A stretch of 64,000 nt of DNA from Escherichia coli. Lineage in GTDB: Bacteria > Pseudomonadota > Gammaproteobacteria > Enterobacterales > Enterobacteriaceae. Both the position numbers and the translations under genes were made by a program. The stretch lies in the NCBI RefSeq assembly GCF_011045215.1, contig NZ_CP049201.1. The stretch is one strand, 5' to 3'. Shown in pieces: positions 24,099 through 43,656 of this stretch; position 1 is the stretch's first letter, and every line of letters starts with the position of its first letter. The notes under the pieces were generated by a model. That model was given only the letters and a program-made list of their open reading frames with translations. It was not told the DNA's origin and ran no database searches.

Positions 24099-26030
24099 AT
24101 GAGTTATCAGGTCTTAGCCCGAAAATGGCGCCCACAAACCTTTGCTGACGTCGTCGGCCAGGAACATGTGCTGACCGCACTGGCGAACGGCTTGTCGTTA
24201 GGGCGTATTCATCATGCTTATCTTTTTTCCGGCACCCGTGGCGTCGGAAAAACCTCTATCGCCCGACTGCTGGCGAAGGGGCTAAACTGCGAAACCGGCA
24301 TTACCGCGACGCCGTGCGGCGTGTGCGATAACTGTCGTGAAATCGAGCAGGGGCGCTTTGTCGATCTGATTGAAATCGACGCCGCCTCGCGCACCAAAGT
24401 TGAAGATACCCGCGACCTGCTGGATAACGTCCAGTACGCTCCGGCGCGTGGTCGTTTCAAAGTTTATCTCATCGACGAAGTGCATATGCTGTCGCGCCAC
24501 AGCTTTAACGCACTGTTAAAAACTCTTGAAGAGCCGCCGGAGCACGTTAAGTTTCTGCTGGCGACGACCGATCCACAGAAATTGCCGGTGACGATTTTGT
24601 CGCGCTGTTTGCAATTTCATCTCAAGGCGCTGGATGTCGAGCAAATTCGCCATCAGCTTGAGCACATCCTCAACGAAGAACATATCGCTCACGAGCCGCG
24701 GGCGCTGCAATTGCTGGCACGCGCCGCTGAAGGCAGCCTGCGAGATGCCTTAAGTCTGACCGACCAGGCGATTGCCAGCGGTGACGGCCAGGTTTCAACC
24801 CAGGCGGTCAGTGCGATGCTGGGTACGCTTGACGACGATCAGGCGCTGTCGCTGGTTGAAGCGATGGTCGAGGCCAACGGCGAGCGCGTAATGGCGCTGA
24901 TTAATGAAGCCGCTGCCCGTGGTATCGAGTGGGAAGCGTTGCTGGTGGAAATGCTCGGCCTGTTGCATCGTATTGCGATGGTACAACTTTCGCCTGCTGC
25001 ACTTGGCAACGACATGGCCGCCATCGAGCTGCGGATGCGTGAACTGGCGCGCACCATACCGCCGACGGATATTCAGCTTTACTATCAGACGCTGTTGATT
25101 GGTCGCAAAGAATTACCGTATGCGCCGGACCGCCGCATGGGCGTTGAGATGACGCTGCTGCGCACGCTGGCGTTCCATCCGCGTATGCCGCTGCCTGAGC
25201 CAGAAGTGCCACGCCAGTCCTTTGCACCCGTCGCGCCAACGGCAGTAATGACGCCAACCCAGGTGCCGCCGCAACCGCAATCAGCGCCGCAGCAGGCACC
25301 GACTGTACCGCTCCCGGAAACCACCAGCCAGGTGCTGGCGGCGCGCCAGCAGTTGCAGCGCGTGCAGGGAGCAACCAAAGCAAAAAAGAGTGAACCGGCA
25401 GCCGCTACCCGCGCGCGGCCGGTGAATAACGCTGCGCTGGAAAGACTGGCTTCGGTCACCGATCGCGTTCAGGCGCGTCCGGTGCCATCGGCGCTGGAAA
25501 AAGCGCCAGCTAAAAAAGAAGCGTATCGCTGGAAGGCTACCACTCCGGTGATGCAGCAAAAAGAAGTGGTCGCCACGCCGAAGGCGCTGAAAAAAGCGCT
25601 GGAACATGAAAAAACGCCGGAACTGGCGGCGAAGCTAGCGGCAGAAGCCATTGAGCGCGACCCGTGGGCGGCACAGGTGAGCCAACTTTCGCTACCAAAA
25701 CTGGTCGAACAGGTGGCGTTAAATGCCTGGAAAGAGGAGAGCGACAACGCAGTATGTCTGCATTTGCGCTCCTCTCAGCGGCATTTGAACAACCGAGGTG
25801 CACAGCAAAAACTGGCTGAAGCGTTGAGCACGTTAAAAGGTTCAACGGTTGAACTGACTATCGTTGAAGATGATAATCCCGCGGTGCGTACGCCGCTGGA
25901 ATGGCGTCAGGCGATATACGAAGAAAAACTTGCGCAGGCGCGCGAGTCCATTATTGCGGATAATAATATTCAGACCCTGCGTCGGTTCTTCGATGCGGAG
26001 CTGGATGAAGACAGTATCCGCCCCATTTGA
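24099..26030 (+). CDS. dnaX: DNA polymerase III subunits tau (full length) and gamma (by frameshift)
   Basis: 643-aa ORF, AAA+ clamp-loader Walker A GTRGVGKTS; the internal slippery site yields gamma. Confidence 0.97.
   Translation: MSYQVLARKWRPQTFADVVGQEHVLTALANGLSLGRIHHAYLFSGTRGVGKTSIARLLAKGLNCETGITATPCGVCDNCREIEQGRFVDLIEIDAASRTKVEDTRDLLDNVQYAPARGRFKVYLIDEVHMLSRHSFNALLKTLEEPPEHVKFLLATTDPQKLPVTILSRCLQFHLKALDVEQIRHQLEHILNEEHIAHEPRALQLLARAAEGSLRDALSLTDQAIASGDGQVSTQAVSAMLGTLDDDQALSLVEAMVEANGERVMALINEAAARGIEWEALLVEMLGLLHRIAMVQLSPAALGNDMAAIELRMRELARTIPPTDIQLYYQTLLIGRKELPYAPDRRMGVEMTLLRTLAFHPRMPLPEPEVPRQSFAPVAPTAVMTPTQVPPQPQSAPQQAPTVPLPETTSQVLAARQQLQRVQGATKAKKSEPAAATRARPVNNAALERLASVTDRVQARPVPSALEKAPAKKEAYRWKATTPVMQQKEVVATPKALKKALEHEKTPELAAKLAAEAIERDPWAAQVSQLSLPKLVEQVALNAWKEESDNAVCLHLRSSQRHLNNRGAQQKLAEALSTLKGSTVELTIVEDDNPAVRTPLEWRQAIYEEKLAQARESIIADNNIQTLRRFFDAELDEDSIRPI
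25382..25393 (+). promoter_or_regulatory. dnaX programmed -1 ribosomal frameshift site (A AAA AAG heptamer plus shifted-frame stop)
   Basis: AAAAAAG at 25382-25388 lies in the dnaX frame as A AAA AAG; the -1 frame reads AAA AAA GAG TGA; upstream SD-like AGGGAG and downstream GC stem-loop (ccggcagccgctacccgcgcgcggccgg). Confidence 0.9.
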
Positions 26031-39984: not shown

Positions 39985-40121
39985 ACGACCTCCCTTTGTG
40001 AAATATCATGCTAGCGCGCGGGGAGGGATGGCGCAAATGGAGTTGGGGACTTGTTTAATGTGTTTGTATGATTCAGTATGTTCTTGTATCGCTATTCACA
40101 GGGAAGCAACAGTTAAAAAGT

Positions 40122-40463
40122 ATGAAACAGGCAACAAGAAAACCGACGACACCCGGAGATATTCTTCTCTATGAATATCTGGAACCGCTCGATTTGAAAA
40201 TCAATGAGTTAGCAGGGTTGCTGCATGTTCATCGTAATAGCGTCAGTACACTGATCAATAACAATCGTAAACTCACCACTGAGATGGCATTCCGTCTGGC
40301 GAAAGTTTTTGATACCACAGTCGATTTTTGGCTAAACCTCCAGGCGGCAGTTGATCTTTGGGAAGTTGAAAACAACATGCGCACCCAGGAAGAATTGGGA
40401 CGGATTGAAACAGTGGCTGAATATTTGGCACGCCGTGAAGAGCGTGCAAAAAAGGTCGCGTAA
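40122..40463 (+). CDS. ybaQ: HigA-like XRE-family HTH DNA-binding protein YbaQ
   Basis: 113-aa product from the internal Met (MKQATRKPTTPGDILLYEYLEPLDLKINELAGLLHVHRNSVSTLINNNRKLT...); track ORF 40068-40463 is an extension. Confidence 0.85.
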   Translation: MKQATRKPTTPGDILLYEYLEPLDLKINELAGLLHVHRNSVSTLINNNRKLTTEMAFRLAKVFDTTVDFWLNLQAAVDLWEVENNMRTQEELGRIETVAEYLARREERAKKVA

Positions 40464-40484: not shown

Positions 40485-41030
40485 CGTAGGCCGGATAAGG
40501 CGTTCACGCCGCATCCGGCATCCGAGCACCATTGCCTGATGCGACGCTTACGCGTCTTATCAGGCCTACAAACCTGTGCCTGAACCGTAGGCCGGAGAAG
40601 GCGTTCACGCCGCATCCGGCATCCGAGCACCATTGCCTGATGCGACGCTTACGCGTCTTATCAGGCCTACAAACCTGTGCCTGAACCGTAGGCCGGAGAA
40701 GGCGTTCACGCCGCATCCGGCATCCGAGCACCATTGCCTGATGCGACGCTTACGCGTCTTATCAGGCCTACAAACCTGTGCCTGAACCGTAGGCCGGAGA
40801 AGGCGTTCACGCCGCATCCGGCATCCGAGCACCATTGCCTGATGCGACGCTTACGCGTCTTATCAGGCCTACAAACCTGTGCCTGAACCGTAGGCCGGAG
40901 AAGGCGTTCACGCCGCATCCGGCATCCGAGCACCATTGCCTGATGCGACGCTTACGCGTCTTATCAGGCCTACAAACCTGTGCCTGAACCGTAGGCCGGA
41001 GAAGGCGTTCACACCGCATCCGGCAGTCAT
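40485..41030. repeat. tandem array of REP-containing units (BIME-like), five full 101-bp copies plus a degenerate sixth
   Basis: Unit cgtaggccggagaaggcgttcacgccgcatccggcatccgagcaccattgcctgatgcgacgcttacgcgtcttatcaggcctacaaacctgtgcctgaac recurs starting at 40485, 40586, 40687, 40788, 40889 (period exactly 101 bp); generates the identical 76-aa track ORFs on the minus strand. Confidence 0.9.
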
Positions 41031-41081
41031 GCGTCGATGCCAAATGCGCCGCCCTAAAGCAGCGCATCCGCAATGACGTAC

Positions 41082-43586
41082 TTATTCCTTCGGTTTAAAC
41101 CGCAGCAACCGGTTGGCGTTACTCACTACGGTAATCGACGAGAGCGCCATTGCCGCTCCGGCAACCACCGGGTTAAGCAGTGTTCCAGTAAACGGCCACA
41201 AAATACCGGCGGCAACCGGAATACCGATGCTGTTGTAGATAAACGCGCCGAGCAGGTTCTGCTTCATGTTGCGCAGCGTTGCGCGGGAAATAGCGAGCGC
41301 ATCCGCAACGCCCATCAGGCTATGGCGCATCAGGGTAATCGCCGCGGTTTCAATAGCAACATCACTGCCGCCACCCATCGCAATGCCGACATCCGCCTGA
41401 GCCAGCGCTGGCGCGTCGTTAATGCCGTCGCCCACCATTGCCACCTGACGTCCTTCACTTTGCAGACGTTTGATCGCTTCGGCTTTACCGTCTGGCAGCA
41501 CCCCGGCGATCACCTCATCAATCCCTGCTTCTTTGGCGATCGCATTGGCGGTGGTTGGGTTATCCCCGGTCAACATCACCAGACGATATCCCGCTTTATG
41601 CAGGCGTTGCAGCGCCGCCACGCTATCACTACGCAACGGATCGCGTACAGCCAGCAGGGCTACCGCTTTCCCGTCAACCGCCAGCAGCACTGGCGTTGCC
41701 CCTTGCGATGCCTGAGCTGAAATATCTGCTTCAATCGCTTTAGTATCAACTTGCTGGTCATTTAACAGCGCCTGATTGCCCAGCAATAACGCATGACCTT
41801 CAGCTTCACCGCTCACGCCCAGCCCGCGCAATGTGCGGAAACCGTTGACCTGCGGCAGCTGCATATCGCTTGCTTTATCGAGGATCGCCCGTGCCAGCGG
41901 ATGGCTGGAACCTTGTTCCAGTGCCGCCGCCAGACGCAGCGCCTGCGCTTCGTCAAAATCAGCAAATGTTTTCACTGCGACAACCTGCGGCTTCCCTTCG
42001 GTCAGCGTCCCGGTTTTATCGAACACGACGGTATCGAGTGTACTGGCGCGTTGCAGCGCGTCGGCGTCCCGCACCAGCACGCCAAACTCAGCCGCCCGCC
42101 CGACGCCGGAAATAATCGACATCGGCGTCGCCAGCCCCAGCGCACACGGACAGGCAATAATCAGCACCGTGGTGGCAATCACCAGGGTATAGACAATCTG
42201 CGGTGCCGGACCAAAGAAATACCAGATTGCCGCACTGACAAGCGCAATCACCACTACTACCGGCACAAATACGGCTGAGATTTTATCCGCCAGCTGACCG
42301 ATTTCTGGCTTGCTGCTCTGGGCCTGGCGCACCATACGAATAATCCTTGATAACGTGGTATGGCTGCCAACCGCACTGGCGCGAAACAGCACGCTACCGT
42401 CCTGCACCACTGTCCCGGCATGGACGCTATCGCCTTCGCCTTTTTGCTGCGGGATAGGTTCGCCCGTCAGCATCGCTTCATCCAGCCATGCTTCGCCTTG
42501 GGTAATCTCGCCATCTACCGGCACGCGATCGCCGGTCGTCAGGCGCAGCAACATACCTGGCTGCACTTCCGCCAGCGGCACGCTTTTTTCACCTTCGTCA
42601 GTAACCAGGCGCGCCGTCGGTGGGGTTAAATCGAGTAATTTCTCCAGCGCCTTAGAAGAACGCTGACGTGCGCGCGCTTCCAGCATATGACCGAGATTAA
42701 TCAGACCGATAATCATCGCACTGGCTTCATAGTAAAGATGCCGCGCTTCCATCGGGAACCACTGCGGCCACAGGTTGACGCTCATCGAATAGAGCCACGC
42801 CACACCCGTACCCAGCGCCACCAGCGTATCCATCGTCGCCGCACCGTTCAGCAGGCTTTTCCATGCACTGCGGTAAAAATGGCCGCCGGCGAAAACCATC
42901 ACTGCCAGGGTTATCAGGCCGATAACCAACCACAGGCTGCGGTTGTCAGCGGTGACCATCATGTTATCGCCGATCATCCCCCAGACCATCACCGGGATAC
43001 CCACCGCCAGTGCGACAATCGCCTGCCAGCGGAAGCGCTTCATCGTAGCGACGGCGGTTTCCTGCTGGCGCTCGCGGCGTTTAGCGTCATCTTCAATCGC
43101 TTCCGCGCCGTAGCCCGCTTTTTCCACCGCCTGCACTAAATCTTGTGGGGAGGCACTGCCCATCACCAGCGCAGTACGCTCCGCCAGGTTTACCCGTGCC
43201 TGAGTGACGCCCGGTACGCTTTGCAGCGCATTTTGTACGCGGGTGACACAGCTGGCGCAGCTCATGCCGCTCAGCAGCAACTGCTGGCTGTCATCGTCAT
43301 CGGCAGTCGCTGCCGGAAGCGCCTCAGAAACCGCTGTCAGTGCTTCCGACGGGATTGATGACTCCGCCAGCGGTTTAGCCTTTGGGTGGCTTACAGATGC
43401 GTCATAACCCGCTTGTTTGATGGTTTCGATCAGCTGTTCTGCACTGGCAGTCCCGGTAACGTGCGCTTCAGTGATAGACACATCCGCTTGTTCCACATCC
43501 GGGCGCTGTTCGAGACTTTCTTTCACGCGTTTAACGCAGTGACCGCAGGACAGGCCGTCCAGGGTCAGGTCGATAGTTTGTGACAT
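41082..43586 (-). CDS. copA: Cu(I)-translocating P1B-type ATPase CopA
   Basis: 834-aa ORF with two N-terminal CxxC metal-binding domains (GLSCGHC, GMSCASC), CPC motif in the TM region, DKTGTLT phosphorylation site. Confidence 0.97.
43375..43386 (-). promoter_or_regulatory. copA programmed -1 frameshift site producing the 70-aa chaperone CopA(Z)
   Basis: Minus-strand heptamer C CCA AAG at codons 67-69 (43380-43386); the -1 frame reads CCC AAA GGC TAA, terminating after the first metal-binding domain at 70 aa. Confidence 0.75.
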
Positions 43587-43625
43587 AAAACACTCCTTTA
43601 AGACAGTTTTGACTGGCTGTGATAA

Positions 43626-43656
43626 AGGTTAAACCTTCCAGCAAGGGGAAGGTCAA
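43626..43656 (-). promoter_or_regulatory. copA promoter with CueR (MerR-family) operator in a 19-bp spacer
   Basis: Minus strand reads TTGACC-ttccccttgctggaaggtt-TAACCT; the spacer contains the dyad ccttcc-N7-ggaagg typical of the CueR box. Confidence 0.8.

Follow-up and report, generated by a model that had tools for sequence, protein, structure and literature searches.

The copA gene of the window, a stretch of 64,000 nucleotides of Escherichia coli DNA, carries a site that, on the reading of its sequence, is almost certainly the one already established in E. coli copA for programmed -1 ribosomal frameshifting. Our analysis contributes the anatomy of the sequence, its identity with K-12, its conservation, the constraint at the nucleotide level and the support for an RNA structure; the occurrence and efficiency of the frameshifting and the copper protection given by its product are taken from the literature. 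The site is already published and annotated and is intact here, and it is not presented as new.

In the ORF list, copA occupies positions 41082..43586 on the minus strand, with its ATG at 43586 and a zero-frame full-length product of 834 aa. This product is a Cu(+)-exporting P1B-type ATPase with two N-terminal HMA domains (Pfam HMA x2, E1-E2_ATPase, Hydrolase) and matches the NCBIfam CopA equivalog NF007952 at 1747.9 bits vs a cutoff of 1316. The gene bears the copA label in 5422 E. coli genomes; within the collection, the genome nearest to this one is that of strain PapM-32-1 and not that of K-12. Reading of the minus strand upstream places a Shine-Dalgarno sequence AAGGAG at 43598..43593 and a promoter at 43626..43656 (-35 TTGACC, 43656..43651; -10 TAACCT, 43631..43626) with a 19-nt spacer that holds the dyad ACCTTCC-N7-GGAAGGT (43653..43633). 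Sequence comparison shows the same promoter in K-12, and we take it to be the CueR (MerR-type) promoter. A sigma-70 scan limited to spacers of 16-18 nt gave no match there, as expected for a 19-nt spacer.

Codons 67 to 69 of copA read CAC (43388..43386), CCA (43385..43383) and AAG (43382..43380) on the minus strand, and the third base of His67 together with Pro68 and Lys69 forms the slippery heptamer C_CCA_AAG at 43380..43386, in the X_XXY_YYZ register (gene offset 200; 200 mod 3 = 2). From 43386 to 43375 the minus strand reads CCCAAAGGCTAA, which in the -1 frame is CCC AAA GGC TAA, and the -1 stop TAA (43375..43377, minus strand) overlaps the zero-frame codons of Ala70 (GCT) and Lys71 (AAA). 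The CopA(Z) coding span is predicted at 43375..43586 on the minus strand, with codons 1-69 read in the zero frame from 43586 to 43380 and GGC TAA read in the -1 frame, and its translation gives 70 aa (MSQTIDLT...SVSHPKG), composed of CopA residues 1-69 plus one Gly. The product holds one complete HMA domain (Pfam PF00403, residues 8-62, profile positions 3-62 of 62, E = 1.2e-13, 51.7 bits vs a cutoff of 24.8), encoded at 43401..43565 on the minus strand, and ends 8 residues beyond the domain's last residue (62). The translation further reveals the metal-binding motif GLSCGHC with Cys14 and Cys17 (C14-G-H-C17; codons 43547..43536, minus strand). A preliminary description of the window had read the heptamer C_CCA_AAG from codons CAC CCA AAG and had placed the end of the -1 product at 70 residues, after the first metal-binding domain; the former proved exact to the base (minus strand, 43386..43380), and the latter was confirmed by translation and the PF00403 boundaries.

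That description had also matched the site to the reported CopA(Z) frameshift, and the match stands, as the cassette equals that of K-12, the CDS annotated in K-12 covers the same span and the comparative tests agree. Identity to E. coli K-12 is 99% over the 411 nt from the copA promoter to the frameshift cassette and 100% over the part that begins 5' of the heptamer and runs through stem S2 of the pseudoknot modelled below. The locus is the same in both genomes, with no change in the heptamer, the -1 stop, the spacer or the ~75 nt that follow; the differences comprise five synonymous changes upstream in the HMA1 coding region, which leave the cassette unchanged, and one T/C difference at 43305, just 3' of the pseudoknot. 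K-12 (NC_000913.3) carries a two-piece CDS, 'soluble Cu(+) chaperone' YP_009518752.1 (511168..511379), whose 212 nt and 70 aa correspond to window positions 43375..43586, and in genomes annotated by PGAP, the 100%-identical PapM-32-1 among them, the long copA CDS is the only one listed. Since standard PGAP lists just the 834-aa CopA, the importance of the site for this window is one of annotation only, and the 70-aa chaperone CDS 43375..43586 should be added, as in K-12.

The programmed -1 frameshift of K-12 copA that gives CopA(Z) was reportedly described by Meydan et al. (2017, Mol Cell 65:207). Frameshifting in copA is well supported and independently confirmed in the literature, with experimental support (PMC9548414, PMC5009743, PMC7558416), and the cited papers attribute the 70-aa chaperone to efficient -1 frameshifting in E. 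coli copA. Further literature likewise favours copA frameshifting (PMC6182138, PMC6771820, PMC10861913), and frameshifting above background has been reported in the identical K-12 sequence (PMC9548414, PMC5009743, PMC7558416, PMC6771820). CopA(Z) is reported to protect cells from copper (PMC6771820), and a pseudoknot and the nascent chain are described as the stimulators.

These observations were further strengthened by comparison across the Enterobacteriaceae, in which the heptamer and the -1 stop are retained in 80/80 species, the heptamer as C_CCA_AAG in 77 and as C_CCA_AAA in 3. Pro68 is CCA and His67 is CAC in 81/81 sequences, the third base of codon 70 is always T (an invariant alignment column), and the -1 stop, TAA or TGA, lies at an identical distance in 80/80 species even where residues 70 and 71 have changed. 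Synonymous-codon entropy is ~0.17 bit at codons 66-92 vs ~1.0 bit elsewhere, and the 88-nt cassette shows mismatches in 81/5422 E. coli genomes (1.5%) vs 1663 and 1472 in the flanks (27-31%), a polymorphism 20-fold below that of the flanks. These patterns indicate that the signal is under strong selection, a confirmation drawn from sequence comparison alone and independent of earlier work. Among distant CopA representatives, L085 (49% identity) has no cassette and reads UUG CCA AAA, which does not allow slippage in the P site, and no cassette was found in L089 and L091; in L086, U_UUA_AAA is followed by a -1 stop five codons later.

Could the short MBD1 protein arise mainly by another route, such as a separate short transcript or proteolysis of CopA, with the frameshift minor or just the source of the stop codon? 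Drees et al. (2017, Mol Microbiol 106:635), who reportedly deal with K-12 CopA(Z), also invoke differential transcript formation in their title, which would favour such an origin. However, a terminator scan of the copA strand at 43000-43586 returned no intrinsic-terminator-like site, and a short transcript would still need the -1 stop to end at residue 70 because a zero-frame stop is absent. As for proteolysis, it is exactly the heptamer, the stop and the pseudoknot that are constrained at the nucleotide level, a pattern which programmed frameshifting explains and proteolysis does not. Reviews also ascribe CopA(Z) to frameshifting (PMC7558416, PMC6771820), and overall we consider a transcript or proteolytic origin very improbable.

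The programmed frameshift was further weighed against chance, under which the heptamer would be a coincidental by-product of coding His-Pro-Lys with no meaningful frameshifting. Such a coincidence is easy to come by for the motif itself, with 23 in-frame X_XXY_YYZ heptamers in the ~14,200 codons of the window (~1 per 620), or ~1.3 expected per 834-codon gene, and the fold of the single sequence is not significant; the heptamer alone is at chance level, and the weight is therefore carried by the comparative checks. In-frame heptamers of the efficient form X_XXA_AAG occur only twice in the window, in copA and dnaX, and the probability of CAC CCA AAG given His-Pro-Lys is 0.022 under the window's own codon usage. 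The rarity of this codon choice and the retention of the heptamer and -1 stop in all 80 other species place the feature as a whole far beyond chance. The suppression of synonymous variation over 27 codons, the low polymorphism within E. coli, and the K-12 annotation with its experimental support (PMC9548414, PMC5009743, PMC7558416) likewise speak against coincidence, to which we give hardly any credence.

A check for an RNA structure at ~43300-43375 had been suggested, and modelling yielded a crossing two-stem structure at 43373..43312. In this model of the minus strand, the spacer GCUAAA (6 nt, 43374..43379, from the sequence reading) leads from the heptamer to stem S1, whose 5' arm CCGCUG (43368..43373), invariant in 69 distinct sequences, would pair with the 3' arm CAGCGG (43331..43336) inside the loop of S2; S2 is an RNAalifold consensus helix of GUCGGAAGC (43342..43350) and GCUUCCGGC (43312..43320). 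The crossing stems would begin 6 nt 3' of the heptamer, within the 5-9 nt required of a stimulatory structure, and the spacer measures 5-6 nt across all eight cassette types examined. We infer that the modelled pseudoknot is the published copA pseudoknot. Its loop L1, at 17 nt, is long vs a classical H-type pseudoknot. The model gains support from pseudoknots in Pasteurellaceae, which share its layout and differ in sequence.

For the E. coli sequence alone, the evidence for structure is weak (pseudoknot score p ~0.06), and ordinary nested folding of the 90 nt that lie 3' of the heptamer gave an MFE z of -1.06 vs shuffles and was no better than synonymous recodings either. The crossing-stem score is the sole folding measure that stands out: synonymous recodings score as well in 62/1000 cases for E. 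coli, 45/1000 for L083, 36/1000 for L088 and 0/1000 for L084, and in 0/500 each for Serratia, Providencia and Pectobacterium. All cells of S2 (100%) are paired in 69 sequences, its one-sided substitutions are pairing-compatible in 16/16 cases (G-C to G-U 10, U-G to C-G 3, U-G to U-A 3), and the rare Leu90 codon CTT, which lies in its 3' arm, is used in 81/81 sequences. S1 has one compensatory change in Serratia, C-G to U-A, and is 100% paired in a mixed alignment of 14 sequences. The stems are invariant within Enterobacteriaceae and hence show no covariation there; the wider set holds only one fully compensatory pair, a level reached by 27/500 shuffles.

Several additions to the model were set aside. 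An extension of S1 by A43374-U43330 was dropped, these bases being unpaired in 42/69 sequences, so that the 9-bp S1 (AAACCGCUG/CAGCGGUUU) obtained for E. coli by itself is conserved only in its 6-bp core. A third helix suggested by the MFE, GUCAUC (43361..43356) with GAUGAC (~43300..43289), was rejected, as GAUGAC showed no compensation in 12 sequences with a changed L1 hexamer. At E <= 1, an Rfam search found no family over the cassette and matched only naRNA4 repeats 3' of copA.

A conserved RNA element of this kind might serve mainly as a pause for folding or membrane targeting, in mRNA stability or as an sRNA site, the truncated protein being a side product. Ribosome pausing by pseudoknots is known (PMC6182138), and the synonymous sites of L1 (codons 76-78) are nearly invariant, for which the pseudoknot model gives no reason. 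Against this, copper protection by CopA(Z) has been reported (PMC6771820). The -1 stop one codon past the heptamer is found in all lineages, formed as TAA or TGA from differing codon pairs, which counts against another purpose because such a stop is of consequence only to ribosomes in the -1 frame, and the product always ends directly after an intact HMA domain; we regard such a purpose as scarcely credible. A frame change at the RNA level, by slippage of RNA polymerase and not of the ribosome, is the least probable of all, as the known bacterial sites of this kind require homopolymeric runs of some 7-9 nt or longer and the site has just three C and three A in a row, the structure 5-6 nt past the heptamer is a hallmark of ribosomal -1 frameshifting, and this analysis found no evidence in support of slippage.

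Under programmed ribosomal frameshifting, a ribosome on the copA mRNA would hold Pro68 CCA in the P site and Lys69 AAG in the A site, with the pseudoknot ~6 nt downstream (S1 43373..43368/43336..43331; S2 43350..43342/43320..43312) resisting unwinding at the mRNA entry channel. A fraction of ribosomes would slip one base 5', both tRNAs re-pairing with CCC and AAA, and would then read GGC, stop at TAA and release the soluble 70-aa CopA(Z), the first heavy-metal-associated domain, which may act as a CopZ-like Cu(I) chaperone. Non-slipping ribosomes would continue to the 834-aa Cu(I) pump, and one gene under one copper-responsive promoter would thus supply pump and chaperone in a fixed ratio.

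To our knowledge, only two cellular -1 frameshift genes are known in E. coli, copA and dnaX. The latter lies in the same window, and its gamma/tau heptamer A_AAA_AAG was located at 25382..25388 on the plus strand by the in-frame heptamer scan. The two genes share an X_XXA_AAG heptamer with tRNA-Lys in the A site, a -1 stop one codon past the slip, an RNA structure ~6 nt downstream and a shorter product that is the N-terminal functional module of the longer one. They differ in that a Shine-Dalgarno-like stimulator, AGGGAG (25366..25371), precedes the dnaX heptamer and the dnaX structure is a simple hairpin, whereas copA appears to use a pseudoknot. No GGAG or AGGAG was found in the 30 nt 5' of the heptamer in E. 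coli copA (ACAAGCGGGTTATGACGCATCTGTAAGCCA); most other Enterobacteriaceae copA genes have GGAG 8 nt upstream in the consensus, and Glu64 is GAG in 67/67.

In many bacteria, stand-alone CopZ/Atx1-type chaperones are encoded by separate copZ genes beside copA. Like these, CopA(Z) is a single ~70-aa HMA (ferredoxin-like) domain with CxxC, but it has no gene of its own. Among the NCBIfam chaperone models it matches the CopZ family (NF047957) best, and it falls below the curated cut-offs of all stand-alone CopZ models (NF047957, 60.7 bits vs 85; NF033794, 39.7 vs 95; NF033795, 38.8 vs 91); among solved structures, those nearest to it are of HMA domains and of CopZ-like proteins. CopA(Z) is thus CopZ-like in its working and of the CopA N-terminal lineage by descent, the binding of Cu(I) and its hand-over to the pump being taken from the literature (PMC7558416, PMC6771820). 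Human ATP7B, a homologous copper ATPase of the P1B type, likewise carries HMA domains at its N-terminus; a -1 frameshift was proposed for it in the paper describing the copA frameshift and has since been refuted: unfused reporters gave no frameshifting, ribosome footprints showed no drop and synonymous sites were not conserved (PMC9548414). The bacterial copA site, in contrast, has strong synonymous-site conservation.

Where CopA has three or four HMA domains (Serratia, Pectobacterium, Providencia, Pasteurellaceae and two other genomes), the same cassette is located before the last domain, which predicts soluble products of two or three domains. Tentatively, the cassette may be a module always placed just before the last, pump-proximal HMA domain, so that three- and four-HMA genes would give rise to soluble chaperones that carry two metal-binding domains (136-145 aa) or three (204-213 aa), the pseudoknot layout being kept and its sequence wholly replaced between Enterobacterales and Pasteurellaceae. 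These comparative data suggest that multi-domain chaperones are made by the same frameshift in other Gammaproteobacteria.

The copA gene, encoding a Cu(+)-exporting ATPase of 834 aa, lies at 41082..43586 on the minus strand, and its product reaches 1747.9 bits for the NCBIfam CopA equivalog (cutoff 1316). Counting from the ATG at 43586, codons 67 (CAC, 43388..43386), 68 (CCA) and 69 (AAG, 43382..43380) place a slippery heptamer, C_CCA_AAG, at 43386..43380 on the minus strand in the X_XXY_YYZ register, exactly the span and reading that the preliminary description had given. From 43386, the -1 frame reads CCC AAA GGC TAA on the same strand and ends at 43375, so the 70-residue product described earlier is borne out by the sequence. 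This predicted protein (MSQ...SVSHPKG) carries the metal motif GLSCGHC and consists of one complete heavy-metal-associated (HMA) domain (Pfam PF00403, residues 8-62, E = 1.2e-13), in agreement with its description as the first metal-binding domain. Of 5426 complete E. coli genomes, 5422 had a match of 95-100% identity to a 701-nt query across the site, with copA as the gene name each time; in the other 4 the copA 5' region had no match, and two matches were on plasmids. Strain PapM-32-1 (from baboon stool, Gambia) matches the query at 100% identity, and its PGAP annotation holds the long CopA CDS only.

The frameshift cassette, comprising the heptamer, -1 stop, spacer and downstream pseudoknot, is base-for-base identical to that of E. 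coli K-12, where RefSeq annotates both an 834-aa CopA and a two-piece CDS of 212 nt, the "soluble Cu(+) chaperone" YP_009518752.1, whose span corresponds to 43375..43586. In published work, copA was flagged by ribosome profiling and follow-up revealed efficient -1 frameshifting with a 70-aa product (PMC5009743), the frameshifting has been called "well supported" with independent confirmation by Drees et al. 2017 (PMC9548414), and CopA(Z), the short chaperone product, protects cells under excess copper (PMC6771820). The K-12 identity, annotation and literature therefore indicate the standard -1 frameshift mechanism, and the site is the known copA/CopA(Z) frameshift itself rather than a mere look-alike, as had been proposed. 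The heptamer and -1 stop are thus confirmed as observations and their interpretation as a frameshift is supported, both being already known. The anatomy, K-12 identity, selection on the signal and structure support were established in this analysis; the occurrence and efficiency of frameshifting, the effect of the nascent chain on it and the function of the product are taken from the literature. Mechanistically, as the pseudoknot resists unwinding at the mRNA entrance, tRNA-Pro and tRNA-Lys slip jointly from CCA-AAG to CCC-AAA, and the shifted ribosome reads GGC and then terminates at TAA.

Taken by itself, the copA heptamer is not above chance, given 23 in-frame X_XXY_YYZ heptamers in a crude set of 42 window genes (14,213 codons), or ~1.3 per 834 codons, while its class, codons, conservation and polymorphism are beyond chance. 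The X_XXA_AAG class, which is efficient in E. coli via tRNA-Lys decoding, has only two in-frame sites in this gene set, copA and dnaX, and the probability of CAC CCA AAG given His-Pro-Lys is 0.022 under window codon usage. PMC10861913 names the same two as the cellular -1 frameshift genes of E. coli. Across 80 other Enterobacteriaceae species (one genome each, 80-99% protein identity), 77 carry C_CCA_AAG and 3 carry C_CCA_AAA with the register kept in all, and a -1 stop (TAA or TGA) falls exactly one codon past it in 80/80 despite differing residues 70/71. Synonymous codon entropy, computed among sequences with an identical amino acid at the position, drops from ~1.0 bit over the first 260 codons to 0.17-0.3 bit at codons 66-92, with rare codons fixed, such as Pro68 CCA (81/81 sequences) and Leu90 CTT (81/81; usage 0.086). 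Within E. coli, BLAST, which trims terminal mismatches, returned a mismatch in the 88-nt cassette (43305..43392) in 81 of 5422 genomes, compared with 1663 genomes in the 88 nt on its upstream side and 1472 in the 88 nt on its downstream side.

The downstream structure anticipated by the preliminary description was found as crossing helices, the nested fold of the 90 nt past the heptamer being unremarkable (z = -1.06). The invariant blocks pair on the minus strand as S1, CCGCUG (43373..43368) with CAGCGG (43336..43331), and S2, GUCGGAAGC (43350..43342) with GCUUCCGGC (43320..43312), with a heptamer-to-S1 spacer of 6 nt and pseudoknot loops of 17, 5 and 10 nt. Among 69 distinct sequences, the S1 core has zero variation, S2 is paired in 100% of alignment cells and its basal two pairs carry 16 substitutions that all keep pairing; RNAalifold returned S2 independently. 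Since the family's own stems do not vary, covariation was sought in distant relatives, using DNA of CopA 50%-identity cluster representatives and relatives of one representative. Serratia liquefaciens has S1 as CCGUUG/CAACGG, a compensatory C-G to U-A change, Pectobacterium and Providencia each have a 10-bp S1 on the same core as E. coli, and in all three 0/500 synonymous recodings scored as well. The Pasteurellaceae genome L084 has stems CUACCGUCA/UGACGGUAG and CCUGAUCCC/GGGAUCAGG of unrelated sequence in the E. coli layout (spacer 5-6, loop L1 18 nt; 0/1000 recodings), and for S1 and S2 of the E. coli window the count was 62/1000; the nested MFE was unusual in no sequence tested against recodings. 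In a mixed alignment of 14 sequences, pairing reached 100% for S1, which included one compensatory pair, and 94% for S2. These patterns argue for the predicted pseudoknot as a conserved component of the copA frameshift signal, the S1/S2 model being well supported and formal covariation thin. The E. coli copA stimulator is published as a pseudoknot (PMC6182138, PMC7558416), to which we infer that the S1/S2 model corresponds. The two-stem model does not account for the synonymous invariance of codons 76-78 in L1 (43351..43367 minus, codons 74-79), where Ser76 Ser77 Ile78 is almost always TCA TCA ATC (TCA usage 0.116). A third helix between an L1 hexamer and downstream GAUGAC was rejected, with no compensation in 12 sequences with a changed hexamer.

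Production of the short protein from a short transcript or by proteolysis would leave selection on heptamer, stop and pseudoknot unexplained, there is no zero-frame stop, and a terminator scan of the copA strand between 43000 and 43586 found nothing resembling a terminator; a transcript-level contribution in addition to frameshifting is possible, as in the title of Drees et al. An element mainly for pausing or stability, with the peptide as by-product, would give no reason for a -1 stop kept through differing codon pairs. Transcriptional slippage is implausible with runs only three bases long, and coincidence is excluded by the conservation data.

The well-known frameshift site of dnaX, A_AAA_AAG at 25382..25388 (+) inside dnaX (24099..26030, +), has the -1 frame AAA AAA GAG TGA, an upstream Shine-Dalgarno-like AGGGAG at 25366..25371 and, from ~25395, a GC-rich hairpin. 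The copA site is like it in the class of heptamer, the spacing, the -1 stop that follows at once and the modular logic of two products, but in E. coli lacks the upstream stimulator and has a pseudoknot in place of the hairpin. In most non-Escherichia Enterobacteriaceae (loci L007-L082, alignment A2 columns 1-4), GGAG precedes the heptamer by 8 nt, and Glu64 is encoded by the minor codon GAG in 67/67; 43395..43398 in the window is without GGAG, and Escherichia has Ser-Val (TCT GTA) there. This GGAG may be an extra dnaX-like Shine-Dalgarno stimulator absent in E. coli. According to the literature, CopA(Z) functions as a CopZ-like chaperone; it is CopA's own first domain and falls below the NCBIfam threshold for stand-alone CopZ families (60.7 bits vs cutoff 85), and so is a non-member. 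The refutation of a similar frameshift claim for human ATP7B (PMC9548414) has no bearing on the copA site.

Where CopA has three or four HMA domains, its gene carries a C_CCA_AAR heptamer and immediate -1 TGA after the penultimate HMA (L083:1411-1500, L084:797-890, L088:1130-1220, L092:711-800, L093:903-992, L094:699-790, L095:708-797), and the signature x-P-K-x-[D/E/K/N/Q] is present at this position in 24/27 proteins inspected. Crossing stems follow in the E. coli layout, those of Pasteurellaceae being unrelated in sequence. From this arrangement, Serratia, Pectobacterium, Pasteurella langaaensis, L083 and L084 are predicted to make soluble proteins of two domains (136-145 aa), and Providencia and L088 ones of three domains (204-213 aa). 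Locus L086 (CopA 49% identity, three HMA domains) has U_UUA_AAA past the second HMA (915-935) and, five codons on, a -1 stop (TTT AAA ATC TGG ATC TGA); no crossing stems were found there, and this candidate may be a degenerate or an alternative frameshift site. Actinobacillus succinogenes CopA is deposited at 912 aa (P0158) and at 749 or 735 aa (P0168, P0174), the short forms being without the first ~150-180 residues, which are those that precede the predicted frameshift site; the discrepancy may come from how the start site was annotated or from a genuine split.

Directly downstream of copA, between its 3' end and a ybaQ/HigA-like ORF (40068..40463 +), lies a tandem array of naRNA4/REP-type repeats (40489..41072), in which a 101-bp unit occurs five times in full and once in part. 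The repeats score 81-87 bits on the + strand against Rfam RF02564 (naRNA4/CssrE, REP-type; gathering score 59.5), and the array yields a series of spurious ORFs of 50-88 aa.
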